DNA of 64,000 bases from Patescibacteria group bacterium. Its GTDB lineage: Bacteria; Patescibacteriota; Microgenomatia; Daviesbacterales; UBA10151. The notes under the pieces were generated by a model. It was not told the origin of the DNA. It did not search any database and saw nothing but the letters and a program-made list of their open reading frames with translations. Positions 16,430 to 53,321 of the stretch are shown here, one piece after another (within the stretch, counting starts at the first letter, position 1; every line of letters begins with the position of its first letter). Made by a program: the position numbers and the translations under genes. The DNA lies in assembly GCA_038064895.1 (NCBI GenBank), contig JBBTSA010000010.1, positions 118,616 through 182,615 on the forward strand. The letters run 5' to 3'.

Positions 16430-16436
16430 GAAGCGA

Positions 16437-26755: not shown

Positions 26756-26756
26756 T

Positions 26757-35477: not shown

Positions 35478-37247
35478 ATGCTCACTACAAAAAAATCTTT
35501 TTTGTTACAATTTGCGTCAGTAGTTATTTTAAGTTTACTAGTTTTTTATCCAAGTTTTAATTTAGCACTTTTTGGTGACGATTGGTTGGCTTTTTGGAGA
35601 TATGCACAATTCCTTGGCCCAAAATCTCAAGGAGTATGGAACCACCTCACTTATTATCTTACTCCATATGGTCCTCAAGATATTATAATGGGAATTTTAC
35701 AAAAGGTTTATCACTTTCAATCAACTGCATATTACCTAATTTCTTATCTATTAAGACTTACTGCTGCATTTTCTTTTTATCCCTTAGTTCTTTATCTGAC
35801 TAAAAACAAGTTATCCGGTATTTTCGCAGTACTTTTCTTCTCTGTTACTACCATAGGTTTAGACACTACAAACTGGGTATTTAATATGCCCTCTTATATA
35901 ACCATAGCCTTATTAAACTTATTTTTATATTTTTTTCTTAAGGCAAGGGAAAACAGAAAAATTCTATTGCTTATTTTGTCGGGAGTACTCTATTGGGCTG
36001 CCTATGTGACAACTCCTATCAGAATGCACGGATCTTTGTTTTTCATTTTTTTTCTGGAAGTTTTTTGGATTCTTCAAAAAAGAAATCTAAGTATTGTGAA
36101 AATGGTTGCACTAAGACTTTCAATTATTTTAGTTGTCTTTCTTATAATCAGATTTGCCGGACACTCTCAAGGCCCACCACAAGAACCTATGGAAAGATTC
36201 ATAATCGGGCTTACTGCTGACTTACAAATGCTTTCTCAAGGCAGATTCGATTTTATCTTTTTCCCAATTGTGATGTTTGGCAGCATGCTGATTCCGGATA
36301 TTATCGGACCAAATGGACAAATTAACAGCCTAAAGCAAATACTTCCTATGCTACTCGTTACATTGCTCATTTTCTCACTTTTTGTCTTTTTTATTATGAA
36401 GAATATAGACAAGTTCAGATCCAAATTATTCGGCTACATTTTTTTTTCTTTAGGGTTGTGGAGCGGACTGGTTGCCTTGATTTATAAAGGGAATCTAAAT
36501 TCCTTCAACAGTACAAATCAAATCTTTTCACTCCTTGTTGGAGGGTATACCCTAATTCTGGTAAGTTTTTTGATCATAAAATTCTTCAAGGAAAAATATA
36601 TATCTCAAGCTCTCTTTCTTGGGGCTTCATGGTCTATTCTATCATTTTTTTTTGCATGGTGGTGGCAACCAACATCAATATTTCCCACAACCTACAGGTA
36701 TCTTATCGTATCCGCAGTCGGAGTAGCAATACTTATTGCAACCATAATTAGTTTAGGTAAAGGTAGAAAACAGCAAATATTCTTAATGACTTTTTTTTGT
36801 CTGATTCTTATTCTTCATATTATCTCAACCCGTATTTACATAAATTATTCTCTTCATAGTCACAGCCAAGAAGTAAGTAATAAAATTTGGGCCTCTATTC
36901 CCCGTATTAATGAAATTGGTAAAAGCAGAGAGCCAATAATCTTCTATTTTGAGGGAGACAATACAAACGCAGGAATCCTTCATGATGTTATAACTTTTGG
37001 TTTTCCTCCTCATATGGCCCTTCTTTATAGATTGAGGGAGGAAGATGGCGGTTTCCCTGTTCCTATGAGCAATTTCAAAGAAGTAGTATTAGCAGTTGTG
37101 GACGGTAAACCAATGCCGGCTTATGGATATCCAGTAAAGCCAGTTCCTATTGAAAGAATCTATGCTTTTCATTTGCAAAATCAAAGTACACTCTTCAATA
37201 TTACAAATACTGTCAGAGAAAAATTAGAAGAGTTAAAAGGATTCTAG
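35478..37247 (+). CDS. Polytopic membrane protein, family B (putative GT-C-like glycosyltransferase)
   Basis: YPSFNLALFGDDW first-loop motif; paralog of 21364..23052. The tabulated start 35442 overlaps the upstream gene; the ATG giving MLTTKKSFLL at about 35478 lies just after the upstream stop. Confidence 0.5.
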   Translation: MLTTKKSFLLQFASVVILSLLVFYPSFNLALFGDDWLAFWRYAQFLGPKSQGVWNHLTYYLTPYGPQDIIMGILQKVYHFQSTAYYLISYLLRLTAAFSFYPLVLYLTKNKLSGIFAVLFFSVTTIGLDTTNWVFNMPSYITIALLNLFLYFFLKARENRKILLLILSGVLYWAAYVTTPIRMHGSLFFIFFLEVFWILQKRNLSIVKMVALRLSIILVVFLIIRFAGHSQGPPQEPMERFIIGLTADLQMLSQGRFDFIFFPIVMFGSMLIPDIIGPNGQINSLKQILPMLLVTLLIFSLFVFFIMKNIDKFRSKLFGYIFFSLGLWSGLVALIYKGNLNSFNSTNQIFSLLVGGYTLILVSFLIIKFFKEKYISQALFLGASWSILSFFFAWWWQPTSIFPTTYRYLIVSAVGVAILIATIISLGKGRKQQIFLMTFFCLILILHIISTRIYINYSLHSHSQEVSNKIWASIPRINEIGKSREPIIFYFEGDNTNAGILHDVITFGFPPHMALLYRLREEDGGFPVPMSNFKEVVLAVVDGKPMPAYGYPVKPVPIERIYAFHLQNQSTLFNITNTVREKLEELKGF

Positions 37248-39050
37248 GTTCTGCAAAATTTCAGCTTTAATATCATAGATTATTTTATCTTTAAGCCTAA
37301 GAGCATAAAAATTTTCCAGTTCAAAGAATTCATTCTCAAAATTAAAGCCCCATACTCCATCTTTAGATAGGTACGCAGATTTTAGTTTTTTCGGGTCATT
37401 CCAAAATACTTTAGGTGCCAAACGCTTATTTAAATTAATACCTGGATGCCAAAGCATCCAGGTATTAAATCCTCCAGTCAAAGTATTATCATAATAATAT
37501 CCTCTTTCCTGATCCTCGGAAAAATCAAAATAGAAAAGCGAAGGTGAGTTATTACTTAAATTTGGTGTCAGTTGTATTAGTTGATCCCGCATTTTTTTCT
37601 TATCCTCTACACCAAAACCACTTGCTAATTGAAAGTTAAAAAAAGCTTTAATTTCCTGAACATTTAGGAATATAAAAAATAACAATGGTATAAAAATTGC
37701 TAAAGTCATAAATCCAAAAAATCTATTGTTTACAAATTTATATAAATTAGTAAATATAATTACGAATAAGCTACTTAAAAATAAACTCATAAAAAGTGCC
37801 GGGATTGTTAAATATCTGTGACTGCCGCTAAATACCTCGGAGGTCGCAGCTCCAAGCCAGGTTAAAAATATATATCCAAAAGCAAAGAAGGGACCAACGA
37901 AAAGTCCGATAAGCAGTCTATTCTTGTACTTCAGCCATTGTATAAAACTAACAATGGAAAGTATCATTACATAAAATCCTATTAATGCTAAATTTATGGA
38001 TCCTATGCTAATTTGATGATCGGCAAAATGATTTCCTAAGACATATAAAAGTACTAAAGAGAATAGTATTAAAACCAATATTTGAAAAAAGGTATAGAAT
38101 TTTTTAAATACAAGCAGACTAATACACAAAGTTAAAGTTATTAAAATAAATAAGGGTCCGCTTATAATATATTCTAAAAAATTCCCAAAATTATCTATTT
38201 TGGGAACTCCTAAAAATTTGGTGTAAGCAGGAAGACCAATTATACTCCCTAAGGCAATGAAGGGAGTCAGCAGTAAATTCCAATTACCTTTAAAAACTCC
38301 TTGAACTATTTCTATACCATGGGACGTAAAATAACTTAAAAAAATCATTGGTTTCGCAAAAAATATCAAAGATAATGGAACAAACATTATAAGTAATCTT
38401 TTGATAGCATTCTTTTCCAATTTTTTTCTTTGCCAAAACAAAAACATTTCTGTCATGAATATAAACAACGGTAGTTGATACATTCTCTCAGTTGATAAAA
38501 ATAAAGTTAAAATTAAGAGAAAAAATAATAAAAATTGTAAACTCCAGTTTCCGATATTTTTTTTAACCATATACCAATATACAACTACAAAAATTCCCAT
38601 AAAAAGAATTGCTGAATAATCGCTACTTGTAACAACTGTATACATTGTTCCAACAGAAGAATAGGAAAAAGCAAAAAGAATTGTTGCAATAAGTGCTATC
38701 AATATACTTCCTGAAATGGCCAATAAAAGAGGGAACACCGCAAGGGTTGCCAAAATTTTGAAAATGTGGGTAGTTATCTGAAAAGATTTAAAATCCAAAC
38801 CAAAAAGATCATTTTGAATCCCAATATAATATATTTGATGGGTATACACTCCTCCCATAGTCCCCCCAACCTCAATATTTTTGATAAATTGATGAATCGT
38901 ATACGGATTTTGGGTTTTATAAAATGATAAAAACCCCCAATCCACATCAGAAAATCCATACTTTAAATGAGGCTCAAGCAAAATTATTTGACTAATAATT
39001 ACTATTACAACAAGTGAAAACACATACCAATGCCGAGAAGGTAGTTTCAT
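37233..39050 (-). CDS. Polytopic membrane protein, family C member 1 (605 aa; most divergent); putative GT-C-like glycosyltransferase
   Basis: About 13 hydrophobic helices plus a roughly 130 aa C-terminal soluble region. Shares SDVDWGFLSFYK...YYIGI...LFGLDF and the C-terminus ENFYALRLKDK with the other family-C members. Confidence 0.5.
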   Translation of the reverse strand: MKLPSRHWYVFSLVVIVIISQIILLEPHLKYGFSDVDWGFLSFYKTQNPYTIHQFIKNIEVGGTMGGVYTHQIYYIGIQNDLFGLDFKSFQITTHIFKILATLAVFPLLLAISGSILIALIATILFAFSYSSVGTMYTVVTSSDYSAILFMGIFVVVYWYMVKKNIGNWSLQFLLFFLLILTLFLSTERMYQLPLFIFMTEMFLFWQRKKLEKNAIKRLLIMFVPLSLIFFAKPMIFLSYFTSHGIEIVQGVFKGNWNLLLTPFIALGSIIGLPAYTKFLGVPKIDNFGNFLEYIISGPLFILITLTLCISLLVFKKFYTFFQILVLILFSLVLLYVLGNHFADHQISIGSINLALIGFYVMILSIVSFIQWLKYKNRLLIGLFVGPFFAFGYIFLTWLGAATSEVFSGSHRYLTIPALFMSLFLSSLFVIIFTNLYKFVNNRFFGFMTLAIFIPLLFFIFLNVQEIKAFFNFQLASGFGVEDKKKMRDQLIQLTPNLSNNSPSLFYFDFSEDQERGYYYDNTLTGGFNTWMLWHPGINLNKRLAPKVFWNDPKKLKSAYLSKDGVWGFNFENEFFELENFYALRLKDKIIYDIKAEILQNLESF

Positions 39051-39055
39051 TTATT

Positions 39056-40945
39056 CTAAAATCCTAACTCCTTAAGTAAATCTTTTTTTATATCAATAAA
39101 ATCTCTACTCTTTATTTTAAACGCGTAAAAATTTTCCGGTTTGTATAGTATCTCTTTATAACTACTCTTCCCATTCTCCATACAAAGACCTCTGAAGAAC
39201 AAACCTCTTTCTCCATCTTGTTCTTTAATATAAGACAGTAATTGTTTATGCTCATTAAGATATAGTATTTCTAAACATCCATCTATTAAATTATTATCCC
39301 TAAAGTGCATCCAAAAGGGGAAACTTGCTAAAAATCCTTCAGAATAAAATGGGCCCCCTTCTGATAGATCAGAAGTATCAAAATAGAATAGCGATGGTTT
39401 AGAATTATCAAAATTTCCTAATCTTTCTTTGAATTTTCCTTGAAGTAATTGTTGCTCATAAGCAGCTCTACCATTAGCGAGAAGATATAAAAAGCGCATA
39501 CTTATTTCCTTACCATTCATCACAAAAATAGAAATTACTATTATAAATATTGGAATTAACAAAATACTCCTAAATAATCTTCCTCTGATACTGATGACCC
39601 TTTTAAAAATAGAGGATACAAATGCAGATAGTAAAAGCGAAGATCCTATAGCAGATACTACTAAATAAGGATGGGTTCCAGAAAAGCTAGTTCCAAAAGG
39701 AGCAAAAGCCCAAGTTGCAAATGTAAAAATGAATAAAAATAATGGCCCTAGCCAAAAGGCCAAAAGTAAGTAATCATTTCTATCTTTTCTTAACCATTCC
39801 ATAAAACATATACTTCCTAAAACCAAGATATAAATTCCGAACAAGGCAGAGTAAATACCAGTTGGCTCATAATGCATTCCTTGATCTTTAGGTAAATATT
39901 TAGAATGGGTAGCTACAAAAAAAACTAATATTTCAGAAATAAAATTTAAACAGAAAGTAATTAAGAAAAATAACCATGGCCTTTTTGACTTTAAAAATGC
40001 CACGAGCAAGGTCAAAGTTCCAAAAATGACGGTTGGTCCACCCAATAAGAAAAAGGTATACTCCGGTAATGTATCAGCGGTTAATAATCCGAATATTTTC
40101 TGCCAATAATCACCTGGAATAAAAGTATGTCCCATTCCGGAAAAGGGAGATAATAAAAGATGCCAGTTTCCCTCACCTACTTTTTTAAAAATACTCAAAG
40201 GATTCCCCAAAAGATTCGCCACAGAGTCAGGAGCATATACAATAAGAATTAGGAGAGGGAGGTAGAATATAGACATTCTGATGAGAATATTTTTAACATT
40301 ATCCAAATTTAGATTTTTTATTAAATGATATGTTTCAATAAGTGGTAATAAAACTAAAAGGGGAAAAAGTCTTATAGGGGAAAATAGTAGTGATAAAAGA
40401 AAGAGAATGAAACTGACAATTAACCATAGAAAATTTCTTGGATACTTTGTGACAATTAAATAATAAGTTATTAAAAATACACACATCCAGAAAATTGCCA
40501 CATAATCACTTCCTTTAACAACAAACTCAAGAGGACCTATGGATGACGCACTGATAGCAAAAAAAAGTGTAGTTAAAATTGCTAGCAGTTTATCTTTAAA
40601 AATAATAAGCACCAAAGGGAAAATTGCCATTGTTCCCAATGCTTTAAAAGTAATATTCAGCACTTGAAACAAGCGATAATCGAATCCCACTAAAGCTTCT
40701 AACATTCCCATGTAATACACCTGATAAGTAGTATATATCCCTCTCTCAGCCCAAACTTTTGTAATTTCAGATAAAGGATTAGAACCAAGTGATTTATAAG
40801 TAAAGTAAAGAATCCAGTCATCCGGTTTAAAACCTATTTTAAGGGCTAATTCTAAAATGGTAAACTGTAAGGTAACAACAATAATTCCCAAAATTAAAAG
40901 AATAATCAGGATCTCATTTTTTTTAAAAATGCTTTTAGTTATCAT
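39056..40945 (-). CDS. Polytopic membrane protein, family C member 2 (629 aa)
   Basis: FKPDDWILYFTYKSLGSNPLSEITKVWAERGIYTTYQVYYMGMLEALVGFDYRLFQ N-terminal block. C-terminus LFYFDTSD...FRGLCMENGKSSYKEILYKPENFYAFKIKSRDFIDIKKDLLKELGF. Confidence 0.5.
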   Translation of the reverse strand: MITKSIFKKNEILIILLILGIIVVTLQFTILELALKIGFKPDDWILYFTYKSLGSNPLSEITKVWAERGIYTTYQVYYMGMLEALVGFDYRLFQVLNITFKALGTMAIFPLVLIIFKDKLLAILTTLFFAISASSIGPLEFVVKGSDYVAIFWMCVFLITYYLIVTKYPRNFLWLIVSFILFLLSLLFSPIRLFPLLVLLPLIETYHLIKNLNLDNVKNILIRMSIFYLPLLILIVYAPDSVANLLGNPLSIFKKVGEGNWHLLLSPFSGMGHTFIPGDYWQKIFGLLTADTLPEYTFFLLGGPTVIFGTLTLLVAFLKSKRPWLFFLITFCLNFISEILVFFVATHSKYLPKDQGMHYEPTGIYSALFGIYILVLGSICFMEWLRKDRNDYLLLAFWLGPLFLFIFTFATWAFAPFGTSFSGTHPYLVVSAIGSSLLLSAFVSSIFKRVISIRGRLFRSILLIPIFIIVISIFVMNGKEISMRFLYLLANGRAAYEQQLLQGKFKERLGNFDNSKPSLFYFDTSDLSEGGPFYSEGFLASFPFWMHFRDNNLIDGCLEILYLNEHKQLLSYIKEQDGERGLFFRGLCMENGKSSYKEILYKPENFYAFKIKSRDFIDIKKDLLKELGF

Positions 40946-40948
40946 CAG

Positions 40949-42835
40949 TTACAATCCTAACTCCTTATGTATCTCCTCCCTAATATCTACAAAATCTCTG
41001 TTTTTAAGTTTAAAGGCATAAATATTTTCTTTTTTATAAAACATTTCCTGATTCCAGGCTTTACCATCTTCAACACATAAGGACCTATACAAAATTCCCT
41101 TTTTTCCCTCCTGTGTCCTAATGAAAGATACAAGTTTGGTTTTATCTTCATAGAAAATCTCAGAGCAGCCATCTATTAATCTATTATCCATAATATGAAT
41201 CCTATGAGGAAAAATAGATAAAAATGTTTCTGAAAAAAAAGTTCCATCATCAGTAATATCGGATACATCCATGTAAAACAGAGCAGGTCTTGTAAGGTCT
41301 ATATCTTTTAAATGCTTCCTAAATCTATCCTGAATCAAATTTTGAGCAATATAACTTCTTCCTTTTGAATTTATTGAAACAAAAAAACTATTTACCACTT
41401 GTTTGTCGACAAAAAAGATAGCTGTAAGAATTAGAACCACTAATAACCAAGTTATAGCTTTTTTTATCAGAAAAGCTTTCCCGAAACTATAAACTTTACT
41501 TAACATAAGAGATAGAATAGCTGCTATAAAAATAGCAAAACCTTCCGATGCAATAACTAAATAATAGCTTGTTTCTTTAAAACCTAAGTTTAGATCAGCC
41601 AAAATCCAAGTCAGAATTGTAAAAATAAAAGACACTCCTAAGGACACCCAGGAAGCCAAAATAATTAGGTTTCTTGTGCTACTTAGCCATTCTTTGAAAT
41701 AGCCTATGGCCAAAGATGTTGCAAAAACACCATTAACGGTTGAATATAATCTTGGAGGATCAAAAGTAATCTGTAGATTGGGGGGTATATTTTTGCTATG
41801 AAAGGCAATAAAATAGGTGACTGTTTGTAAAACAATATTAGTAACTCCTACATTTACAAAAAAAATTAGAGGCTTCTTGGATGTGGTAATTGCCAATGTA
41901 GCTACTATGATGGTCCAAATTAGAATTGGTCCACCCAAAATTAGGCTTCCTATATATCGAGGTAAATCTTCAAATATAATGGGTTTAATGAAATGTCCCC
42001 ATACCTCAAGCGGTACAAACATAAATCCCAGGCCTTGGATTGGGGTTAAAAGAAGATGCCAGTTCCCATCCATAATTATTTGATATAATCCTAAGGCACC
42101 AAAAAAATATTGAGTTATTAACTTTGGTTTGTAAATTAAGGCTAAAATTAAAGGCAGGTAGAGTAAGGAGATTCTGGCTATACCGATCTTGACACTGCTA
42201 AAGTTTTTTTGCTTTGTCCAAATAAATAATTCTATTAAAGGAATTAAGAAAAGCAGAGGATAGGAGCGAATAGTTGAAGAAATAATAGTCAGAAGTAACA
42301 GAATACAAGAAATTGGAAGCCATTTAGTTTTTAAAATATTTTTCTTTACTAAAAAGAAGTAGCTTATAAAGAAGCTATTCATAAAAAAAATTGACACATA
42401 GTCTCCTCCTTTAACTGCAAATTCTAAGGATCCAACTGAGGAATAGCTAATAGCATAAAGAAATACGGATAGAGCAGCAAAAAGCTTATTTTTAAACACA
42501 AGAGCTATAAGTGGAAATATAGATACAGTTGCTACAACCTTTATAATTATATTAGTTAATCCTATTGCTTGATAATTGATACCCCAAATGTCTACCAATC
42601 CTCCCAAATAATAAAGGAAGAAAGTGGTATAAGGTCCCCTTTCCTGCCAAACTTCAGATAGTTTTAAAATAGGATTATCTCCCAAAGATTTATATATAAA
42701 AACAAAACTCCAATCGTCTGGTGAGAAACCTATCTCAAAAGGCCGGAGTATCAAGTATTGAATAAAGGATACAATTAATATCAGGATAATTAATGTTAAA
42801 AGGTAGGATTGTACTATACCGATTTTTAGATTCAT
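40949..42835 (-). CDS. Polytopic membrane protein, family C member 3 (628 aa)
   Basis: FSPDDWSFVFIYKSLGDNPILKLSEVWQERGPYTTFFLYYLGGLVDIWGINYQ...C-terminus YRSLCVEDGKAWNQEMFYKKENIYAFKLKNRDFVDIREEIHKELGL. The start codon shares a base with the stop of 42835..43872 (TAATG coupling). Confidence 0.5.
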   Translation of the reverse strand: MNLKIGIVQSYLLTLIILILIVSFIQYLILRPFEIGFSPDDWSFVFIYKSLGDNPILKLSEVWQERGPYTTFFLYYLGGLVDIWGINYQAIGLTNIIIKVVATVSIFPLIALVFKNKLFAALSVFLYAISYSSVGSLEFAVKGGDYVSIFFMNSFFISYFFLVKKNILKTKWLPISCILLLLTIISSTIRSYPLLFLIPLIELFIWTKQKNFSSVKIGIARISLLYLPLILALIYKPKLITQYFFGALGLYQIIMDGNWHLLLTPIQGLGFMFVPLEVWGHFIKPIIFEDLPRYIGSLILGGPILIWTIIVATLAITTSKKPLIFFVNVGVTNIVLQTVTYFIAFHSKNIPPNLQITFDPPRLYSTVNGVFATSLAIGYFKEWLSSTRNLIILASWVSLGVSFIFTILTWILADLNLGFKETSYYLVIASEGFAIFIAAILSLMLSKVYSFGKAFLIKKAITWLLVVLILTAIFFVDKQVVNSFFVSINSKGRSYIAQNLIQDRFRKHLKDIDLTRPALFYMDVSDITDDGTFFSETFLSIFPHRIHIMDNRLIDGCSEIFYEDKTKLVSFIRTQEGKKGILYRSLCVEDGKAWNQEMFYKKENIYAFKLKNRDFVDIREEIHKELGL

Positions 42836-43872
42836 TATGGAATTTTATATAAAGCATCAAAAAACATTCTTTGGATTGGGTGAGGGCTATTTTTTAAAAC
42901 TGCTTTCCATTTTCCAGGAACAGGATACTGATGTTCTTTAATATTTTGGTTATCAACAGTGTGTGACTGTTGCCATTGTTTAGTATAAAAATAACCCTTT
43001 GTTAAACGATTTATATGTTTTAAATAATTCCTAATTTGATCCCTTCTCATTTCATGTAATGAGCTAACGGTAATAAAAAGACCAAATTGCTTTTTGGGTA
43101 AAAGTTCAATTTGATGCGGCATTAAAAATTGGATTCTGGCAGATTCAAACTCCTTTTTAATTTGCTGATATGATTTGAAGGGTTTAAATTTAAATATCTT
43201 CTCCCCTGGAAAGACAGTGGAAAGATACTTTTGAGAAATATATAGAGCAGGAGGGATATCAATAATGCAATAAGAAGAATCAGGTAAAACTTTAAGGAAA
43301 ATAAATGCTAATCTCCCATAGCCTGCTCCTAACTCAGCTATCTTCATTTTTTTAGGAAATTTACCTGATTGTCGGATGGCATAAAACTCATGGATAGAAT
43401 TACAAAGATCTTGAGAAATTAATTTATTTTTGTACTCTACTACAAATGGGTTACCTACTAAAGGCTCCTCTAGAGAATCCAATAAATTTAAGTAGTCATT
43501 TTGAGAAATATAGTCTGCAAAAGAGGATACAAACACCTTATATATCAAGGCAGATAGCCAGTTAAACCTCTTAACTTGTTCTTCAGATTCAGAGAATGAA
43601 TATACAAATTTACTTTTTAGTATGGGGTCAAAATTACCTTTATTAATCTGAGATAATACAACTGGCAATTGATGTCTGATAATCCCAAGAACACCCCAAT
43701 TAAAATACCTCATATTGACAGACCTTTTGAAATTATCAATGTCTGCATTAATGAGTTGATTAAGATGAATCCTATTTAAATCCACCCAGAAGTTAGAGGG
43801 TTGATAAATTGGCGGAGCTTTTTTTAACTCCTTAAGCATTTGACTTAGTACTTTATTATTAATGATTTTCAT
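42835..43872 (-). CDS. Putative SAM-dependent methyltransferase (Rossmann GxGxG), possible sugar O-methyltransferase
   Basis: IAELGAGYGRLAFIFLKVLPDSSYCIIDIPP resembles MTase motif I followed by an acidic residue at the end of beta2. No other recognisable domain. Embedded between family-C GT-C genes. Confidence 0.4.
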   Translation of the reverse strand: MKIINNKVLSQMLKELKKAPPIYQPSNFWVDLNRIHLNQLINADIDNFKRSVNMRYFNWGVLGIIRHQLPVVLSQINKGNFDPILKSKFVYSFSESEEQVKRFNWLSALIYKVFVSSFADYISQNDYLNLLDSLEEPLVGNPFVVEYKNKLISQDLCNSIHEFYAIRQSGKFPKKMKIAELGAGYGRLAFIFLKVLPDSSYCIIDIPPALYISQKYLSTVFPGEKIFKFKPFKSYQQIKKEFESARIQFLMPHQIELLPKKQFGLFITVSSLHEMRRDQIRNYLKHINRLTKGYFYTKQWQQSHTVDNQNIKEHQYPVPGKWKAVLKNSPHPIQRMFFDALYKIP

Positions 43873-43944
43873 CTTAGATAATTATACTTCATGCTTCGTT
43901 TATTACATTAATAACTTGTATAATTGCTTATCCTAGGTCAAAAC
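43873..43944. promoter_or_regulatory. Divergent intergenic region with candidate -10 box (TATAAT 43919-43924) for 43945..44871 and probable promoter for 42835..43872 on the other strand
   Basis: This is the only intergenic gap of more than 50 nt in the 37-48 kb segment. It is AT-rich and holds a TATAAT hexamer 20 nt upstream of the ATG. Confidence 0.3.
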
Positions 43945-44871
43945 ATGAATTTTAAAAAAAATATTACTGGCAATAAAAGCAAAATTGCGCAATGTTCTTT
44001 TTGTCATAAAGCAAAAAATGTAAAATTTATCTTTGCTGATAGGAAATTCAATTTTTTCTTTTGTTTCACTTGTCATATGGGATTTACATACCCTTACCCA
44101 AAACCAAAGGAACTGGAAAAATATTACCATGAAAATTATTGGGTCACACCTGGTCTTTTAGGATTCTTCAGAAAGTATGTTTTTGATTTTTTCCAAACTC
44201 GGCGTAAAAGGTGGGTTATGCATTACCTCTCCAAAGGAAAAATTCTAGATGTAGGCGCAGGAGAAGCTAAATTCGCTAAATCCCTAGGTAACAGATATCA
44301 AGTCACGAGTTTAGATGTACCATCTTCAAAAATTATTAATAAGAGTGTTCTAAAGGTTAATTTTTTAAAATGGCAGACATCTAATAGATTCGATGCAATA
44401 GTGTTTTGGGAAAGCCTGGAACATACTCCAAAACCGGAGCAATACTTACAAAAAGCATATAAATTGTTAAAAAAAGATGGTTTTATGTTTATTGAATATC
44501 CCCGATTTGATTCCTTTGAGTCAAGATTTTTCAATAAGTATTGGTTTCATCTGGACCCACCCAGACACTACAGTTATATAACTGAGAAAGGACTTGAATT
44601 GCTTGTATCCCGTACTGGACTGTTGAGAGTTTTCCATGGAAGTGTTGCTGCTTTTGAATACGCCATATGGGGATTTATTGGAAGCACCCTAAACATAATA
44701 AATCTGAGAATAACAGATATCTTAAAACAAAATCGCAGTTTAATATTATTATTTCTACTGATCCCTTTTTTTATTATGGTTGTATTTATTGAAATCTTTT
44801 TTGCAATAATAGGACAATCTCCAATTGGATTAATGATTGCCAAAAAAGAATCTAAAAACCTAGCTCCTTAA
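43945..44871 (+). CDS. Class I SAM-dependent methyltransferase with N-terminal Cys4 zinc-ribbon
   Basis: CSFCHKAKNVKFIFADRKFNFFFCFTCHMG (two CxxC pairs), then ILDVGAGEAKFAKSLGNRYQVTSLDVP and FDAIVFWESLEHTPKPEQ. The track start 43924 is TTG; ATG at 43945 is preceded by TATAAT at 43919-43924. Confidence 0.65.
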   Translation: MNFKKNITGNKSKIAQCSFCHKAKNVKFIFADRKFNFFFCFTCHMGFTYPYPKPKELEKYYHENYWVTPGLLGFFRKYVFDFFQTRRKRWVMHYLSKGKILDVGAGEAKFAKSLGNRYQVTSLDVPSSKIINKSVLKVNFLKWQTSNRFDAIVFWESLEHTPKPEQYLQKAYKLLKKDGFMFIEYPRFDSFESRFFNKYWFHLDPPRHYSYITEKGLELLVSRTGLLRVFHGSVAAFEYAIWGFIGSTLNIINLRITDILKQNRSLILLFLLIPFFIMVVFIEIFFAIIGQSPIGLMIAKKESKNLAP

Positions 44872-46744
44872 GTAAATTTTTCTTGATATCTATAAAATCT
44901 TTGTTTTTAAGTTTAAAAGCATAAAAATTGTCCGGTTTATAAAAAATGTCTTTATAACCCCCTTTTCCGTTCTCGACGCAAAGACCTTTGTAGAAAAAGC
45001 CCTTTTGTCCGTCTTGTTCTTTTATGTATGGTATTAATTGTTTATACTCATTAAGATATATTCTCTCTGAGCATCCATCTATTAATTGAGTACCCTGAAA
45101 ACGCATCCAAAAAGGAAAACTTGATAAAAAACTTTCAGTATAAAATGGACCATTCTCTATTTCTGAAGTATCAAAATAAAACAGCATCGGTTCTGTTTGA
45201 TTAAACTGTTTAATTTTTTCCTTAAATTTAGACTGAAGAAATATCTGTCCAGACGCAGCTCGTCCATTTAAATTTGCACTATTAAAGTAAGTATAGATCA
45301 ATTGTCTATTAGCAAAATAAAAAAGAATTATAGATAAAAAAAATATTGGTAAAAATACCATAAATAAAATTGTTTTAACCTTTTTAGTCCTCTCATAAAA
45401 AATTACCAGTAGTGCCGAGATAAACAAATAAATTCCAACACTCGGAATCATTAGATAATGATCCTGAGCCCCTCCAAATGCTAAATTCTCACTAGCCAAT
45501 ACCCAAGTTAACACAATAAAAAGAAAGGATATTACCGGACCAACCCATAAAGCAAGTATTAAATGATTTTTTCTACCATCTATTTTCCATTCAATCCAGT
45601 ATACAAAGCTTAGGATCAAAATCAGCAAACCAAAAAATGTGGAATATATTCTGGGAATATCAAAAATTATTCTATTTTCTTTTGGCAAACTTAAGAAGTG
45701 ATTTGCAATAAAGAAAACCATTATTTCCAGAATAAAGTTTAAACAAAAGGCCAACAGGAAAAACCTCCAGGGCTTTTTTACTATCAGTAAACTTAAAATT
45801 AAAATTATCAGGCTAAAGATTACTGTTGGCCCACCAAGTATAAAAGAGAAATAATCTTTAAAGCTTTCCATATTTAGTAAACCAAATATTTTCCAGACGC
45901 TATCACTAACAGGAAATGTATGGCCCAATCCTTGTAAAGGGGTTAGTATTAGGTGCCAATTACCTTCTAAAACTCTAAGTATCACTGTAGGAACAACGCC
46001 AATATAATTCATTACTACCTTGGGATGATATAACGTAACAACTATAAAAGGTGCAAAAAGAATAAATAATCTTACTAGACCAATCCTTAGTGCAACAACA
46101 GAAGGTTTTTGAATCAATAAATAAGCTTCTATAGAAGGTATTAACACAAGTAACGGATACAATCTCATTACAGAAAAAAGTACTGCAATAATTAAAAAAG
46201 TAGTCGCTAAGCTTAAACCTTTCCACATCAATAAATTGTTTTTAATAACTTGGTAATAAGTAATCAAAAATAGCCCCATAAAAAACATTCCCAAATATTC
46301 ACTAGGCTCTACAGCTGTCTCTAGTGGACCTGCAGACGGGTAGCTCATTGCAAAAAGTATAGTTGTTAAAATTGCAAGCAATCTACTTTTAAAAACCAAT
46401 AAAACTAGGGGGAAAAGTACCATACTGGCTAGTATTTTAAAGCAAATACCAATTATCTGCATTTTAAAAAAATCAAATCCAACCAAGCTATTTATGATAC
46501 CAGTATAATAAAGCGGAACGGTTGTATAAGGACCTCTTTCTATCCAAACATCAGCAATTTTAGACAAGGGATGAAAACCCAGTAGTTTATACCAGAAAAT
46601 AAAAGACCAATCATCCGGTGTAAGACCAATTTCTAAGGCAGGCTTTAGAAGATCATATTGCATCAAAGATACAATAAAAATAAGTATAATAAAAAGAAAG
46701 AAATTAGAATCTATGGTCTTTGTTAGATCAGATATTTTTTGCAC
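44852..46744 (-). CDS. Polytopic membrane protein, family C member 4 (630 aa)
   Basis: LTPDDWSFIFWYKLLGFHPLSKIADVWIERGPYTTVPLYYTGIINSLVGFDF...C-terminus FYKGLCVENGKGGYKDIFYKPDNFYAFKLKNKDFIDIKKNLLKELGF. Convergent 20 nt overlap with 43945..44871. Confidence 0.5.
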   Translation of the reverse strand: MQKISDLTKTIDSNFFLFIILIFIVSLMQYDLLKPALEIGLTPDDWSFIFWYKLLGFHPLSKIADVWIERGPYTTVPLYYTGIINSLVGFDFFKMQIIGICFKILASMVLFPLVLLVFKSRLLAILTTILFAMSYPSAGPLETAVEPSEYLGMFFMGLFLITYYQVIKNNLLMWKGLSLATTFLIIAVLFSVMRLYPLLVLIPSIEAYLLIQKPSVVALRIGLVRLFILFAPFIVVTLYHPKVVMNYIGVVPTVILRVLEGNWHLILTPLQGLGHTFPVSDSVWKIFGLLNMESFKDYFSFILGGPTVIFSLIILILSLLIVKKPWRFFLLAFCLNFILEIMVFFIANHFLSLPKENRIIFDIPRIYSTFFGLLILILSFVYWIEWKIDGRKNHLILALWVGPVISFLFIVLTWVLASENLAFGGAQDHYLMIPSVGIYLFISALLVIFYERTKKVKTILFMVFLPIFFLSIILFYFANRQLIYTYFNSANLNGRAASGQIFLQSKFKEKIKQFNQTEPMLFYFDTSEIENGPFYTESFLSSFPFWMRFQGTQLIDGCSERIYLNEYKQLIPYIKEQDGQKGFFYKGLCVENGKGGYKDIFYKPDNFYAFKLKNKDFIDIKKNLLKELGF

Positions 46745-46746
46745 AA

Positions 46747-48327
46747 TTATAATTTTTTTGACTTCAAATCTTCTAATATTATTTGCGTGATATTAAATAT
46801 TTTTTTATCTTTAAATCGAAATGCTCTAAACTCTGATACATTATATCTGGTTTTAGCTGTCCTTATATTAAATTGACTCATAGCACATAAACCATCCTGT
46901 TCAAAATACTCACCTCTATTGTTGTAAGAGATTATTAACTGATTTCTTTCAGTTACATAGCTTACACACCCTAAGAAATTAGGTTTTTTGAAATAAAGCA
47001 TCCAATATTCAAAATACCCCAAATTGGAAGAAACTGCATAAAACTGATGTAATCTTGGATCATGAAGTCCCTCAAAATAAACAAACACATTGAGCTGGTT
47101 TTTAGTAAGTGATCCAAGCACTTGATTTTGCATATAACTTTGGTCTTTCCACCCAGTTCCCCGAGATAACAAATCATTAAAGTACCTATTAATCTCATTA
47201 AAGCTTACTAAAGCTACAATAAAGAAAAGAAAAAAAATAATAAATAAATATCTTAGCTGCTTAAATTTAATCCATAATTCATAAAATAAACATAGTAATC
47301 CTGCGATAAAAAGACTTATTCCCATTGAAGGAATTATTAAATACCAGTGAACGGAATCAGAGATATGAAAAGCCTTACTCTGAAATATCCATGTAGCTAT
47401 TAGAAAAAAGAAAGCAAAGAAGGGTCCGAAAAATAATAAAAAGAATTTATTCAGCTTACTTCCTCTCTTAATCCAGATTATCAGGTAACCGGATGATAAA
47501 ACTATAAGAAAAATGCCCAGTAAAGAAGCCGATATTCCCAAAATCTTAAGCTGATCATTCCCCAGTAATGTATACCCGAGAGCCTCCAACGGAGCAAGAG
47601 AAAAATACCAGTTACCTGTTTTTAAATCATTAACAAAGGCAAAAGAACCCAAACTACCTATTGCCAAAAAAATTATAGGCATATAAAAAATAAGTAGTCT
47701 CGTGAATGATTGAAAGAAAAACCTAATTTTTTTATTCCTAAATATTAAATAAATTTCAATTAAAATAATTAATCCTAATATGGGATATATTCTTATTGGA
47801 GAAAGTATGAATGTCAAAAATAAAATTATAGATGACAAAATTGTTAATCTCATAGATTTCTTGGTTACACAAAAGTAGTAAGATAAAAAGAATAAATTCA
47901 TAAAGGCAATTGCTAAATATTCGCTACCTTTAACAACATGCTTAAAGGCCCCTGCCGATGAATGAATTATTGAAAATATTATTGCTGCGCTGCTTGCTAA
48001 AAAATAACTTCTAAAAAGCTTATAAATTAGGATAAAGAGAGTAATTGATGCAAAAATTTTAAAGCAAATATTAATAATTTGAAACAGTTGGTAATTTATA
48101 CCAAAAAGTGATTCGAGAATGCCGATGTAATAAAACTGAATTGTGGTGTAAGGTCCCCTAATCATCCAGGCATCTAAAGCTTTATCGAAGGGATGCGGAT
48201 CGAATGTTTTATAAGCAAACAACAGTTGCCAGTCGTCTCCAGTCAAACCACTGTTTAGAATAACTTGCGAAAACAAGAAGGTAAGTACTGTACATGCTAA
48301 TAGTGTAAATATAACGTATAATTTCAT
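46747..48327 (-). CDS. Polytopic membrane protein, family C member 5 (526 aa, shorter C-terminus)
   Basis: LTGDDWQLLFAYKTFDPHPFDKALDAWMIRGPYTTIQFYYIGILESLFGINYQLFQ and C-terminus SEFRAFRFKDKKIF. Confidence 0.5.
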   Translation of the reverse strand: MKLYVIFTLLACTVLTFLFSQVILNSGLTGDDWQLLFAYKTFDPHPFDKALDAWMIRGPYTTIQFYYIGILESLFGINYQLFQIINICFKIFASITLFILIYKLFRSYFLASSAAIIFSIIHSSAGAFKHVVKGSEYLAIAFMNLFFLSYYFCVTKKSMRLTILSSIILFLTFILSPIRIYPILGLIILIEIYLIFRNKKIRFFFQSFTRLLIFYMPIIFLAIGSLGSFAFVNDLKTGNWYFSLAPLEALGYTLLGNDQLKILGISASLLGIFLIVLSSGYLIIWIKRGSKLNKFFLLFFGPFFAFFFLIATWIFQSKAFHISDSVHWYLIIPSMGISLFIAGLLCLFYELWIKFKQLRYLFIIFFLFFIVALVSFNEINRYFNDLLSRGTGWKDQSYMQNQVLGSLTKNQLNVFVYFEGLHDPRLHQFYAVSSNLGYFEYWMLYFKKPNFLGCVSYVTERNQLIISYNNRGEYFEQDGLCAMSQFNIRTAKTRYNVSEFRAFRFKDKKIFNITQIILEDLKSKKL

Positions 48328-48330: not shown

Positions 48331-49086
48331 ATGAAGGAAAAGAAATCTAAGATTGTAGTCATTTTTTTAGCATATAATGCTTCTAAAACTTTAGAAAAAT
48401 TCTACTTAGAATTTCCTAAAAAATTTGTTTCGGATATCATCTTAGTTGATGATGCATCCAAAGACAATACTTTCAAAATAGCCAAAAAGTTGGGAATTAA
48501 ATCATTCAGAAATCCTGTGAATTTAGGTTATGGGGGAAATATGAAAAGAGCTTTAAATCTGGCGCTTGCAAGTGGAGCAAATATCGTCATCGATATTCAT
48601 CCGGATGGTGAATATAAACCTTCAGCCATTCCATATGCCATAAAAAAAATAGAGTCGGGAGCAGAATTTGTTTTGGGAAATCGTTTTACCAATTTTTACA
48701 ATCCTTTAACAAGTGGAATGTATATTTGGAAATGGCTTCCTATTAGGCTTTTAAATTTTCTGGATACGATTATTCTAGGCATAAACTTAGACGACTTTCA
48801 TCAAGGCTTTAGAGTTTATACTAAAAAAATGCTTGAGCGGATAAATTATCAGTCAAATTCCAATAATTATTTATTTAGCTTTGAATTAATAGCCCAAGCA
48901 GTCTATCACAAAGTTAAAATATCCCAGGTCCCTGTAGAAACCAGCTACACCGGCAAAAAACGAGGAGCTAGCTTAATAAATAGTATTAAATATTCAATGG
49001 GTACATTCAAAGTACTGTTACTCTTTATGATGGCTAAGTTAGGATTTAGAATACAACTTTTCCAGTCTAAACAATTGTCAGTTTAG
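48331..49086 (+). CDS. Glycosyltransferase family 2
   Basis: KIVVIFLAYNASKTLEKFYLEFPKKFVSDIILVDDASKDNTFKIAKKLG and DIHPDGEY. Confidence 0.7.
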   Translation: MKEKKSKIVVIFLAYNASKTLEKFYLEFPKKFVSDIILVDDASKDNTFKIAKKLGIKSFRNPVNLGYGGNMKRALNLALASGANIVIDIHPDGEYKPSAIPYAIKKIESGAEFVLGNRFTNFYNPLTSGMYIWKWLPIRLLNFLDTIILGINLDDFHQGFRVYTKKMLERINYQSNSNNYLFSFELIAQAVYHKVKISQVPVETSYTGKKRGASLINSIKYSMGTFKVLLLFMMAKLGFRIQLFQSKQLSV

Positions 49087-50305
49087 GGATAGCAAGAATA
49101 AATCTTCCACCCTTTTTCCTGTACTCCGCTTGTTTTTTTATTATCTCATCAGCAAAATTCCAAGCCAAAAGCAGGGTATAGTCTGGTTGATCCTCCAGCA
49201 ACTTTGACTCCGGAAAAATCGGGATGTGCATACCGGGAGTAAATTTCCCCTGCTTATAAGGGATTGAGTCAACTATATAATCAAGTGTTTCAGGTCCAAT
49301 TCTGCAATAATTCAGAATTATATTTCCTTTTGCAGATGCTCCGTATCCTACAATCTGTTTGTTTTCCAAACGCAGTCCCCAAAGAAGCTGTACTAATTCA
49401 TGCCTTACCTTATCTACCCTCCGTCTAAATTTTAAGTATGTTTTGGGGTTTAAGATTCCTCTTTTCTTCTCAAGTTGTAGTAACTGTTTTACACATCTAC
49501 TTTCTTTTCCAGTATTTCCAACAAAAACCCTAACTGAGCCGCCATGGACTGGAATTCTTTGGATATCTATTAACCAAAGTTTATGTCTTTTTAACAGTTT
49601 TTCGAGTGGAGTAATCGAAAAATACGAAAGGTGCTCCTGATAAATAGTATCAAACTCTACCTTCCCAATTAGATCAATAAGATATGGGAATTCGGCAATA
49701 AATAATCCATCATCAGAAAGCAATACTTTTATACCTTCCAAAAAATCATGTAAATTGTGCACATGAGCAACAACATTTGTAGCCGTAATAATTTTGACCT
49801 GACCATACTCTTTTTTTATTACTTTTGCCAACTCTTTTGTAAACAAAGCACATATTGTTTTGACTCCTTCCAAATTTGCCTTTTTCACAAGATTTTCAGC
49901 AGGATCAACACCCAAAATCTTCATCCGCAAGGCCTTAAATGCTTTAAGTAGTGTTCCGTCATTGCTTCCAATATCTAAGACCAAATCTCCCTCTTTAGCA
50001 TAAGTCTTTGCGATTGCTTTCTTGGCTAAATCAGCGAAGTGGGTGCGCATTGTTTCAGAAGTAGAGGGAATATACACATAATTTTTAAACATAACTTTGG
50101 GGGAAACCACATGAGCAAGTTGCACCAATCCGCAATCCCTGCAAAAACAAACATCCAGAGGATAAAATTTCTCTGCCTTGTGACGATAATCTGCTTTTAA
50201 AAATCCGTTAGGTACCGGTGTTGGCCCCAGCTGTAAAAACAGTAACAAATTATTACTATCACAAGCCCGACAAACTTCCAGTTTAAATACTTCTTTTTTA
50301 AGCAT
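49067..50305 (-). CDS. NDP-hexose C-methyltransferase-like (Zn-binding N-domain plus class I MTase plus C-terminal domain; TylCIII/NovU/Coq5-sugar-C-MT architecture)
   Basis: CRACDSNNLLLFLQLGPTPVPNGFLKADYRHKAEKFYPLDVCFCRDCGLVQL (the CxxC...L..G..P....F.....E..YPL...C..CGLVQL block typical of this family). MTase motif VLDIGSNDGTLLKAF. 412 aa as in characterised sugar 3-C-methyltransferases. Confidence 0.7.
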   Translation of the reverse strand: MLKKEVFKLEVCRACDSNNLLLFLQLGPTPVPNGFLKADYRHKAEKFYPLDVCFCRDCGLVQLAHVVSPKVMFKNYVYIPSTSETMRTHFADLAKKAIAKTYAKEGDLVLDIGSNDGTLLKAFKALRMKILGVDPAENLVKKANLEGVKTICALFTKELAKVIKKEYGQVKIITATNVVAHVHNLHDFLEGIKVLLSDDGLFIAEFPYLIDLIGKVEFDTIYQEHLSYFSITPLEKLLKRHKLWLIDIQRIPVHGGSVRVFVGNTGKESRCVKQLLQLEKKRGILNPKTYLKFRRRVDKVRHELVQLLWGLRLENKQIVGYGASAKGNIILNYCRIGPETLDYIVDSIPYKQGKFTPGMHIPIFPESKLLEDQPDYTLLLAWNFADEIIKKQAEYRKKGGRFILAIPKLTIV

Positions 50306-50344: not shown

Positions 50345-50842
50345 TCACTTTAAACGCTCTGATAGGATTTTTAGGGTATTTATATCATGTTGAATCAACA
50401 TCCAAAAGCTGGTATTTGCTGGGTAAACATCTCTTAACTTTTCTAAAAATTTACCGTATACTTCAAACTCTTTAATAGTTTTTTCCTTATCTTTAGAGTT
50501 TTGCTTGATTAACTCATCTGTCAATATTCCTGCATGGAAAGCAAATCTTTCGCTGGCTTGTTGCACCTCCGATAAAAGTTTTTTCTCAACTACAAAATTA
50601 AGTTCTGACAGTTTAATTTTCAATTGGGATTGATAAAAATTAATTTTTGACTGCCTGCTGAATTGTAGTTTACCTAACCCTTTTTCCCACAATCTTTTAA
50701 AGGAATAATAAAAAGAACCGGGATTTATAGCCTCATTTTTCAGACTGATACTTTCTTCAGCTGCACCTATTGCTAGAGGTTGACAAATTATGAGAAAAAC
50801 AACAAAAATAGAAAAGATTAATTTTTTGGTTGCAGAATTCAT
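50345..50842 (-). CDS. Hypothetical exported protein (N-terminal signal peptide / TM anchor)
   Basis: MNSATKKLIFSIFVVFLIICQPLAIGAAEE, then a helical, charged 130 aa with no recognised motif. Confidence 0.4.
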   Translation of the reverse strand: MNSATKKLIFSIFVVFLIICQPLAIGAAEESISLKNEAINPGSFYYSFKRLWEKGLGKLQFSRQSKINFYQSQLKIKLSELNFVVEKKLLSEVQQASERFAFHAGILTDELIKQNSKDKEKTIKEFEVYGKFLEKLRDVYPANTSFWMLIQHDINTLKILSERLK

Positions 50843-50910: not shown

Positions 50911-51651
50911 ATGAAAAAATATCTATATGAGGATCTATATCTTTTGGAAGAGAAACATTGGTGGCATATTTCAAAAAGAGAAGCAGTACTAAGTTTAATC
51001 AAGGAATATGCAAAAGGAAATAGAATTAAAATTCTAGATGTTGGTTGCGGGACTGGAAGGAATATGGAGGAATTTAAGAAGCTTGGGGATGTTTGGGGAT
51101 TAGATAGCTCTCTCATTGCTCTAAACTACTGTAGAAAAAGAGGGCTTAAGAATCTTAAGTTGGGGTCCGCCGAAAACACTTCACTGGAGACATCTTCCTT
51201 TGATGTAGTCACTCTACTTGATGTATTGGAGCATACAGATGATAATAAAACCTTAAAAGAAATGGCTCGTATTCTTAAGAGAAATGGAATTCTAATATTA
51301 ACTGTTCCAGCTTTTCCATGGCTGTGGAGTAAATGGGATGAAGTTCTACATCATAAAAGAAGATATACCATAAACACTTTTAAAAAAATGTTAGACTCTT
51401 ATGATTTTCATCCGGTTAAAATGACTTATCTGTATTCTTTTCTAGTCTTGCCCACATTAATTATTAGAAAAATTAAACAAAAATTTTCAAAAAATTTTTA
51501 TCCATCAGATTTTACATTATCAACTCCTCTTTTGAACTTCATATTGAATAATCTGTCAAGACTGGAGTTTTTTCTTTCAGGAAAATTTTATATACCCTTT
51601 GGTACATCTATTGTAGTAGTAGCAAAAAAGAATGATCAAAAAACTACCTAA
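50911..51651 (+). CDS. Class I SAM-dependent methyltransferase
   Basis: ILDVGCGTGRNMEEFKKLGDVWGLDSS and FDVVTLLDVLEHTDDNKTLKEMARILKRNGILILTVP. Confidence 0.75.
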   Translation: MKKYLYEDLYLLEEKHWWHISKREAVLSLIKEYAKGNRIKILDVGCGTGRNMEEFKKLGDVWGLDSSLIALNYCRKRGLKNLKLGSAENTSLETSSFDVVTLLDVLEHTDDNKTLKEMARILKRNGILILTVPAFPWLWSKWDEVLHHKRRYTINTFKKMLDSYDFHPVKMTYLYSFLVLPTLIIRKIKQKFSKNFYPSDFTLSTPLLNFILNNLSRLEFFLSGKFYIPFGTSIVVVAKKNDQKTT

Positions 51652-52366
51652 ATTTCCTTTTATTTCTATAGTTATTCCTCTTTATAATGAGGAGAGAAGA
51701 GTTTCGAATTTATCGAAAATCTACAAATATTTTGATAGAACTAACTTAAAGTATGAAGTCATATTGATAAATGACGGAAGCAAGGATAAAACCCTTAGGA
51801 AATTAAATGAAATATCTAAAAATTTTAAGTTTAACCTTATTTCTTACTCCCAAAATCGAGGTAAAGGTTATGCCATAAGAGTGGGAATGATCAAGGCAAG
51901 GGGGCAATACAGATTATTTACTGATATAGATTTGTCTACCCCAATAGAAGAATTTAATAAATTTCTACCGAACTTAAAAGAATACGATATTATCATTGGC
52001 TCAAGAAAGAAGAGGGGGTCAAAACTAATTATCCGCCAACCAAAGCTGCGAGAAAAGTTAGGCAAAGGATTTACTAAATTATCTCAACTTTGTTTAGGAC
52101 TAAATTTAACAGATTTCACTTGTGGTTACAAATGTTTTTCCAAGGAAGCTACAAAAAAAATTTTTTCTAAACAGAGGATTAATCGCTGGGGGTTTGATAC
52201 AGAAATTCTCTTTATTGGTAAAAAAAAGGGGCTTTCTATTAAAGAGATTCCTGTAATTTGGAAAAACGACCCTGAAACTAAAGTTAAACTACCTTTGGAT
52301 ATTATTACCTCCTTTCTTGATCTTCTTAAAATCCGCTACGCAAGTTTCAGGAAGCTTTATGACTAA
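51632..52366 (+). CDS. GT2 polyprenyl-phosphate glycosyltransferase, DPM1/GtrB-like
   Basis: ISIVIPLYNEERRVSNLSKI...YEVILINDGSKDKTLRKL...FTDIDLSTP. 244 aa. Confidence 0.7.
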   Translation: MIKKLPKFPFISIVIPLYNEERRVSNLSKIYKYFDRTNLKYEVILINDGSKDKTLRKLNEISKNFKFNLISYSQNRGKGYAIRVGMIKARGQYRLFTDIDLSTPIEEFNKFLPNLKEYDIIIGSRKKRGSKLIIRQPKLREKLGKGFTKLSQLCLGLNLTDFTCGYKCFSKEATKKIFSKQRINRWGFDTEILFIGKKKGLSIKEIPVIWKNDPETKVKLPLDIITSFLDLLKIRYASFRKLYD

Positions 52367-53316: not shown

Positions 53317-53321
53317 CTTAT

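Follow-up and report, generated by a model that had tools for sequence, protein, structure and literature searches.

What do large membrane proteins encoded side by side in the genome of a very small bacterium do, when sequence databases offer no name for them? The question is raised by a stretch of 64,000 nucleotides (positions 118,616 to 182,615 of contig JBBTSA010000010.1, assembly GCA_038064895.1), hereafter called the window, which comes from the metagenome-assembled genome (MAG) of a 'Patescibacteria group bacterium' living in groundwater and possessing a genome of roughly 1 Mb. The genomes of Patescibacteria, or the candidate phyla radiation (CPR), are tiny, and the cells are believed to live attached to those of a host. 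An earlier inspection of the letters and predicted translations (the sequence-only reading) had singled out an array of diverged paralogs of a membrane protein family, here referred to as family C, and suggested that they are related transferases; in the NCBI annotation they are hypothetical proteins (AAB414_02440, AAB414_02510, AAB414_02520). Our analysis leads us to propose, with a probability of about 0.72, that the members of family C are extracytoplasmic glycosyltransferases with a predicted GT-C(A) fold, which would differ in acceptor or linkage specificity and act on one glycan or glycoconjugate.

The array proper comprises five intact open reading frames (ORFs), homologous along their full length with BLASTP similarities far above chance, and located exactly where the sequence-only reading had placed them: C1 (37233..39050, 605 amino acids, aa), C2 (39056..40945, 629 aa), C3 (40949..42835, 628 aa), C4 (44852..46744, 630 aa, GTG start) and C5 (46747..48327, 526 aa). 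The minus strand carries all five of these genes, and not just four as had been stated. C1 and C3 are identical to the NCBI entries AAB414_02510 and AAB414_02520, respectively. Two further relatives are present in the window: C0 (35442..37247, plus strand, 601 aa), which is arranged convergently to C1 with an overlap of 15 nt, and the more distant C6 (21364..23052, minus strand), whose gene call in NCBI gives a protein of 522 aa; translation of C6 thus probably begins downstream of the TTG at position 23052. A hidden Markov model (HMM) of the family retrieves C2, C3 and C5 with E-values of 3.4e-202, 1.7e-179 and 1.4e-131, C0 with 3.6e-119 (a value that is not independent, as the underlying alignment included C0 itself) and C6 with 7.8e-39; in BLASTP, C6 matches C0 (4e-18) and C2 (9e-12).

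In an all-against-all BLASTP comparison the closest pair is C2 and C4 (47% identity, E = 0), followed by C3 with C4 (40%, E 1.4e-146) and with C2 (39%, E 1.6e-150), while C1 shares 26-32% of residues with C2-C4 (E 3e-47 to 5e-76) and C0 shares 21-24% with the array members. The range among the five is thus 26-47%, slightly broader than the 30-45% estimated before. The identity of C5 to the other members is about 35% over the N-terminal half of the protein and about 27% over the remaining, C-terminal part, and C5 has lost about 100 aa internally, corresponding to about two transmembrane (TM) helices of the variable module described below. The motifs quoted in the sequence-only reading can be found in the alignment (x-P/G/V-D-D/V-D-W ... 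YK, ERG-P/I-YTT, LFYFD and NFYAFK..DI), with the exception that the GLC..NGK block and its two cysteines are present in only four of the five proteins, C1 being devoid of them. The packing of the genes is tight, as had been claimed, with gaps of 2, 3 and 5 nt and one overlap of 1 nt where 3-6 nt or overlapping junctions had been reported: C4 and C5 are separated by 2 nt, whereas an O-methyltransferase gene, C3, C2 and C1 form one minus-strand run with a 1-nt overlap followed by gaps of 3 and 5 nt. Such spacing makes co-transcription likely.

Evidence for the proposed function of family C comes from its predicted structure. An AlphaFold2 (AF2) model of C4, covering residues 2-630 (true C4 numbering is used throughout) and built on an alignment of 45 sequences, has a predicted local confidence (pLDDT) of 91.6 and a predicted TM-score (pTM) of 0.91. 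Its structural matches include membrane glycosyltransferases that use lipid-linked donors: STT3B (18.0), Pmt2 (17.0), Pmt4 (16.9), ALG12 (16.5), AftA (16.0), PglB (15.6), AglB (15.5), ALG9 (13.8), ArnT (13.4), AftB (12.7) and AftD (12.1), and no Wzy, WaaL or SEDS structure is among the matches listed. The GT-CA class is characterized by an N-terminal conserved module of seven helices, by a variable module that comes next and is in contact with the acceptor, and by a first outside loop, whose first helix carries the catalytic base (PMC13503287). The model of C4 exhibits the same arrangement, with an N-terminal module of seven TM helices, a variable helical module, and a first outside loop comprising at least two helices, the first of which bears a conserved acidic residue. 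Family C very probably possesses the GT-C(A) fold, as judged from this model. The C-terminal α/β domain (residues 519-630), on the other hand, has no match to any known fold.

The topology of C4 was deduced by comparing the helices of the model with the sequence. Short loops rich in K and R are confined to one side of the membrane (KSR 119-121, KKPWR 321-325, KIDGRKNH 388-393 and ERTKKVK 452-458), while the loops on the other side are long or acidic, which points to 13 TM helices with the N-terminus inside and the C-terminal domain outside; the predicted topology thus agrees with the extracytoplasmic location previously suggested for that domain. The first outside loop (residues 33-91) contains helices 43-54, 59-70 and 72-88, and according to DSSP D45 of the DDW motif caps the N-terminus of the first one. 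The predicted fold and the location of DDW in this loop support the suggestion that the array encodes related transferases with a GT-C-like active-site loop on the outside. Across 277 homologs D45 is conserved in 96%, W46 in 87%, R194 in 99%, E206 in 94%, R225 in 94% and Y430 in 99% of sequences. All six of these residues are retained in each of C0-C5, the shortened C5 included (it keeps the equivalents of D45, R194, E206, R225 and Y430), so none of these copies looks dead. R194, R225 and Y430 are candidates for phosphate ligands. In the long fourth outside loop there is a G-N-W motif, of which G261 is 92% conserved and N262 and W263 are kept in C1-C5.

Similarity between the paralogs is distributed unevenly. 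It is highest in the first two outside, or extracytoplasmic, loops (EL1, 43%; EL2, 48%) and lowest in TM12-13 (29%) and in EL5/EL6 (22-23%), a pattern that would be expected if the handling of the donor was common to all members and the recognition of the acceptor was different in each. The C-terminal domain had also been suggested to be a possibly disulfide-stabilized module. The cysteine pair C558/C589 is present in C2-C5 and not in C1, C0 or C6; across the homologs both cysteines are found in 42 sequences, neither in 206 and only one in 29 (Fisher p 2e-25). This co-occurrence suggests a disulfide on the outside, but one confined to a single subfamily. Other subfamilies lacking C558/C589 have a different pair of closely spaced cysteines in the C-terminal domain (C-PEPRSM-C; e.g. 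LICPEPRSMCL, LCPQPDPDCY), which hints that outside disulfides may have been acquired independently.

Searches with a profile of the family, carried out among 1.84 billion representatives, as the sequence-only reading had recommended for learning its distribution, revealed 307 clusters (at 50% identity) when E <= 1e-30 was required, and 2431 when the limit was relaxed to E <= 1e-3; the subfamily of C1 accounts for most matches in the homolog search, many of them at 50-69% identity. The same array had also been recommended to be sought in related genomes, and arrays of 4-7 copies indeed recur in five related loci, within a conserved gene neighborhood. Our scan of species-representative genomes was pattern-based and used a narrower alignment, so the ten loci it yielded are a lower bound; their records are titled as Candidatus Daviesbacteria, Microgenomates or Patescibacteria MAGs, and some as 'uncultured Gammaproteobacteria'. 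The number of family copies per locus of roughly 22 kb is seven in L005, five or six in L003, five in L004 and L006, four in L011 and one to three in the others. Six third-party-annotation (TPA) bins carrying family members have the gammaproteobacterial title (L003, L005, L006, L007, L009 and L010). They exhibit 32-35% G+C, like the window, and in L003, L005 and L007 the neighboring genes are 70-84% identical to those of the window, with the same gene order in L003 and L005; the title is probably a placeholder or a wrong taxonomic assignment.

Each paralog of the window has an ortholog elsewhere with 54-69% identity, as compared to at most 47% between the paralogs themselves. For instance, the ortholog of C2 in L003 is 59% identical, the orthologs of C5 (54-56%) are shortened to an equal length, and in L003, L004 and L008 the orthologs of C0 are found at this convergent position as well. 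Synteny extends over parts of the array in related genomes; in L003 the order is small GT2, C5', methyltransferase, C4', C2' and C0', orthologs of C1, C3 and the O-methyltransferase being absent. In the same genome, the closest related one, two adjacent ORF fragments at 15654-17083 (plus strand; alignments of 237 and 173 aa) match family C and look like one frameshifted or decaying member. Since the orthologs are closer to each other than the paralogs within the window, the duplications must be old and each copy has been maintained. Judging from these sequence comparisons, the paralogs are old and specialized and not products of recent diversification, and the arrays gain and lose members between lineages. 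The proposal that the family diversified in place, or under diversifying selection, is therefore not borne out. The recommended calculation of the ratio of nonsynonymous to synonymous substitutions (dN/dS) was made for the paralogs and also for the orthologs, and gave nominal ratios below 1 at dS values from 1.2 to undefined; with dS saturated, it says nothing about positive selection. A stretch of 300 nt near the 3' ends of C2 and C4 is 79% identical, and gene conversion was considered and rejected, as dS in this region is 1.24 and the likeness follows the conservation of amino acids.

Among the genes interspersed with the array and adjoining it are several for modification and activation of sugars. 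The two methyltransferase genes reported between C3 and C4 turned out to be what had been claimed. One (42835..43872, minus strand), the first gene of the run leading to C1, encodes a putative sugar O-methyltransferase (NCBIfam TIGR04371, 137.7 bits against a cut-off of 44) with an ortholog within the array of L005. The other (43924..44871, plus strand), convergent with C4 and overlapping it by 20 nt, encodes a class-I S-adenosylmethionine (SAM)-dependent methyltransferase (Pfam Methyltransf_23, 4.3e-19) with an N-terminal CxxC...CxxC motif resembling a zinc ribbon and a hydrophobic C-terminal tail, and has orthologs within the arrays of L003 and L005. Divergent from C5 is a gene for a small GT2 enzyme of 251 aa (48331..49086, plus strand; Pfam GT2), whose best NCBIfam matches are PpgS (2e-20), AglJ (2e-17) and a dolichyl-P-hexose transferase (9e-13), all below the curated cut-offs. 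This divergent pairing with the first gene of the array recurs in L003 and L005, and the enzyme is a candidate polyprenyl-phosphate-sugar synthase that would make the donor for the array. The starts of C5 (48327, minus strand) and of the GT2 gene (48331, plus strand) are back to back with 3 nt between them, which leaves no space for an intergenic promoter; one of the starts may be mis-called, or the promoters may reside within the neighboring gene.

Further on, a conserved module adjoins the array. It includes an enzyme of the nucleoside-diphosphate (NDP)-sugar C-methyltransferase type (49067..50305, minus strand; Pfam Methyltransf_14 3.9e-58, Methyltransf_13 1.6e-22), whose syntenic counterparts in L003 and L005 are 82-84% identical. 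It is followed by a gene (50345..50842, minus strand) for a small, helical and secreted protein of 165 aa that has a signal peptide and a region similar to DUF5667 (Pfam PF18915, 1.5e-5, which does not reach the gathering score). Homologs of this protein are encoded directly upstream of a family member in eight related loci (L001 at 9463-9987, L004 at 5377-5910, and L007-L012 just upstream of position 10001), and it may be a partner or a substrate of family C. Then come two small GT2 genes (51632-52366 and 54628-55416, plus strand) resembling synthases of polyprenyl- or dolichyl-phosphate sugars (AglJ 9e-35, PgfS 3.5e-24), and conserved genes for sugar activation, encoding an epimerase/dehydratase of the short-chain dehydrogenase/reductase (SDR) type (52363-53316, minus strand) and an enzyme of the UDP-glucose/GDP-mannose dehydrogenase family (53322-54572, minus strand); the whole block 51632..55416 is syntenic in related loci.

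In fact, the whole 64-kb window is a glycan locus. Counting the genes described above, it encodes transferases of the GT2 and GT4 types, SDR epimerases/dehydratases, the enzyme of the UDP-glucose/GDP-mannose dehydrogenase family, a formyltransferase, a carbamoyltransferase, three DegT aminotransferases and nucleotidyltransferases, as well as several methyltransferases, the C-methyltransferase among them. Five small GT2 enzymes (235-262 aa) are encoded by genes at 19167, 22950, 48331, 51632 and 54628, with AglJ, dolichyl-phosphate (Dol-P)-hexose transferase, PpgS, PgfS and ArnC as their best NCBIfam matches; they resemble polyprenyl-phosphate-sugar synthases, i.e. the expected makers of the donors. 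In known three-component systems it is the polyprenyl-P-sugar synthases that make the donors for GT-C enzymes (PMC11127046). C6 is part of an Arn-like cassette (19167-27866, minus strand) comprising genes for a DegT aminotransferase, an SDR enzyme, a second DegT aminotransferase, a formyltransferase, a small GT2, C6, an orphan membrane protein and another small GT2. The formyltransferase is similar to the N-terminal part of ArnA (215 bits to the ArnA model), the GT2 at 22950-23657 is ArnC-like, and the order aminotransferase-formyltransferase-GT2-GT-C around C6 resembles arnB-C-A...T, which suggests that polyprenyl phosphate is the carrier for a formamido or amino sugar. The orphan protein (19913-21367, minus strand) is 484 aa long, with some 12 hydrophobic segments, and nothing in Pfam or PDB matches it. 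Its homologs are found on contigs equal in length to those that bear C6 orthologs, so its position beside C6 is probably conserved, and it could be a lipid-sugar flippase or another transferase.

Besides family C, the window encodes four more large membrane proteins that are orphans. 'Family B' comprises three large polytopic membrane proteins of 765-783 aa (2641-4938, minus strand; 33161-35473, plus strand; 55382-57733, minus strand) with 28-40% mutual identity and no Pfam, NCBIfam or PDB sequence match. Comparison of the family C profile with the 770-aa 'family B' protein by hhalign gave a probability of about 1%. Copies of 'family B' flank the family C array in the window as well as in L003 and L004, and they may represent another unrecognized GT-C family. 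A recognizable GT-C enzyme is also encoded in the locus: a 712-aa membrane protein (7077-9215, minus strand) matches Pfam GT-C_AftD with an E-value of 1.2e-12. The glycan locus runs on past the left end of the window (L013, 13952-22298), where a 1183-aa protein with faint matches to GT-C_AftD and DUF5667 is followed by proteins of 1128 and 890 aa that have no Pfam match; the name of this contig (Hain_H51_01um) indicates an assembly of an environmental metagenome (ENA ERZ1292627).

By analogy with GT-C(A) enzymes of solved structure, we envisage the following mechanism. Small cytoplasmic GT2 enzymes would transfer a sugar from its nucleotide-activated form to polyprenyl phosphate, and the lipid-linked monosaccharide would be flipped to the outer face of the membrane. 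Each paralog would then bind the lipid-sugar in its N-terminal module of seven helices, with R194, R225 and Y430 holding the phosphate, while D45 of the DDW motif, located at the N-terminal end of helix 1 in the first outside loop, would activate the acceptor hydroxyl for an inverting transfer. Which position of the acceptor a given paralog serves would be determined by the more divergent helices TM8-13, together with the outside loops and the C-terminal domain specific to the family. The interleaved methyltransferases would O-methylate some of the added sugars, and the array as a whole would provide one extracytoplasmic glycan or glycoconjugate of the Patescibacteria cell with a variety of sugars or linkages.

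A number of points weigh against this proposal. The GT-C(A) assignment is based on a predicted structure, and the equivalence of D45 to the known catalytic base is based on its position in the loop only. The best Foldseek matches of the C4 model (ArnT, PglB, DPY19 and STT3) agree with the above structural matches in identity, but reach TM-scores of only 0.3-0.4. At the sequence level no link to a characterized GT-C family was detected: none of the seven members has a Pfam match at E <= 1 or an NCBIfam match at the same threshold, and the 45-member family profile finds nothing below E 0.1 among all PDB sequences. In the latter search, with results collected up to E <= 10, a match to the LCP protein TagT (E 1.3, in the C-terminal YAFKL...IK segment) was regarded as due to chance and was not trusted. 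The family does not match the AftD profile, and hhalign gave a probability of 1% for its relationship to the AftD-like protein of the window. The matches of all small GT2 enzymes to synthase models are below the curated cut-offs. Finally, no GtrA, SMR, MATE or Wzx flippase was found by Pfam among the window ORFs of at least 120 aa; of the components of a Gtr- or Arn-type three-component system, the synthase-like GT2 and the GT-C genes do adjoin each other.

Several other explanations have to be considered. Should the chemistry be the same but the acceptors be proteins, the members of family C would be O- or N-glycosyltransferases similar to PMT, PglB/STT3 or streptococcal Pgf, acting on pilins, the S-layer or other surface proteins and differing in the site or in the successive sugar they add. 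STT3B and the Pmt proteins do head the structural matches of C4. Still, no Pfam PMT or PMT_2 match and no MIR domains were found that would place family C in ArnT/PMT_2 (GT83) or PMT (GT39), and neither a WWDYG-type motif nor a Pfam STT3 match was seen that would place it in STT3/PglB/AglB (GT66), whose C-terminal fold is unrelated; we regard protein acceptors as rather unlikely, if the strongest of the competing views. A completely different role is that of polymerases or ligases acting on repeat units linked to polyprenyl diphosphate (Wzy, WaaL or SEDS-like), or of non-catalytic subunits with the GT-C fold, similar to PIG-U/GAB1. Assignment to Wzy, EpsG or O-antigen ligase was one of the outcomes that the sequence-only reading had named as fatal to its own suggestion, and our searches found neither such a profile match nor a GT-C(B)-type fold; although the GT-C fold itself is shared with PIG-U/GAB1, we consider this group of explanations highly improbable.

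The paralogs could also be alternatives that do not cooperate, the array being a cassette for variation of surface glycans, like the serotype-converting Gtr* GT-C enzymes; its members would be employed, lost or gained so as to alter the glycan and escape phages or hosts, which corresponds to the diversifying selection of the sequence-only reading. Copy numbers that range from one to seven per locus across related genomes are compatible with this idea, and so is the situation in L003, where C1, C3 and the O-methyltransferase are missing and a frameshifted-looking member is found at 15654-17083. However, none of the seven copies in the window is disrupted, the conserved polar residues are all present in C0-C5, the gaps of 2-5 nt or 1-nt overlap make co-transcription likely, no tandem repeats or switch-like sequences were found, every paralog has a conserved ortholog elsewhere, and the nominal dN/dS values are below 1, albeit with dS saturated. 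A variation cassette therefore appears improbable, more so than protein acceptors, and extracytoplasmic glycosyltransferases that share one glycan or glycoconjugate remain our preferred explanation. A more elaborate version of it is tentative, and we would sooner bet against it than for it: the 4-7 tandem paralogs may form an ordered extracytoplasmic assembly line for a long, branched, partly O-methylated surface glycan, made almost entirely from polyprenyl-phosphate monosaccharides. Family C would then be a lineage-specific candidate for a new CAZy family, its C-terminal domain would bind the acceptor or serve as a 'ruler', and the secreted DUF5667-like protein would be a partner dedicated to it.

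The assignment of a GT-C fold to the largest orphan family of the window turns 'hypothetical membrane proteins' into testable enzymes and points to glycan assembly outside the membrane driven by polyprenyl-phosphate sugars in this lineage; the family profile is also a tool, which retrieves the 307 clusters from public data. Among the papers searched, none links GT-C enzymes with Patescibacteria or the 'candidate phyla radiation'. What is new here is the sequence family, its fold-orphan C-terminal domain, the tandem arrays of 4-7 copies and their presence in small-genome Patescibacteria; family C extends a known class of enzymes and introduces no new principle.

How does family C compare with the systems already described? 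The Gtr (GtrA/GtrB/Gtr*), Arn (ArnC/ArnE-F/ArnT) and GT136 systems resemble it in having a GT-C gene beside a gene for a small GT2 synthase (48331-49086 by C5, 22950-23657 by C6), and the Arn operon also in the position of C6 after aminotransferase and formyltransferase genes. A GT-C-fold enzyme combined with a lipid-linked donor is the hallmark of these three-component systems, the polyprenyl-phosphoribose synthase/MATE/GT136 type included (PMC11127046). In contrast to all of these, the window has no recognizable flippase gene and many GT-C genes per synthase instead of one. The acceptor of ArnT, lipid A, is not expected in the host of family C, as Patescibacteria are not known to possess lipopolysaccharide (LPS). 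From STT3/PglB/AglB (GT66) and PMT (GT39) the family differs in the features listed above, i.e. the WWDYG-type motif, MIR domains and Pfam matches, none of which was seen. A second close parallel is provided by ALG3/ALG9/ALG12 (GT58/GT22) and by the mycobacterial Emb/Aft enzymes, in which a series of paralogs extends one glycan from polyprenyl-P-sugars, as family C is proposed to do. Family C exhibits only 7-12% sequence identity to these proteins, with no similarity detectable by HMMs, and differs from them in its 13 predicted helices, its C-terminal domain, its arrays of up to seven copies and its host, a Patescibacteria/Microgenomates bacterium with a very small genome. If the assembly line is true, a bacterium with a genome of about 1 Mb would possess a counterpart of the ALG series acting in the lumen of the endoplasmic reticulum (ER), or of the way in which mycobacteria synthesize arabinan.

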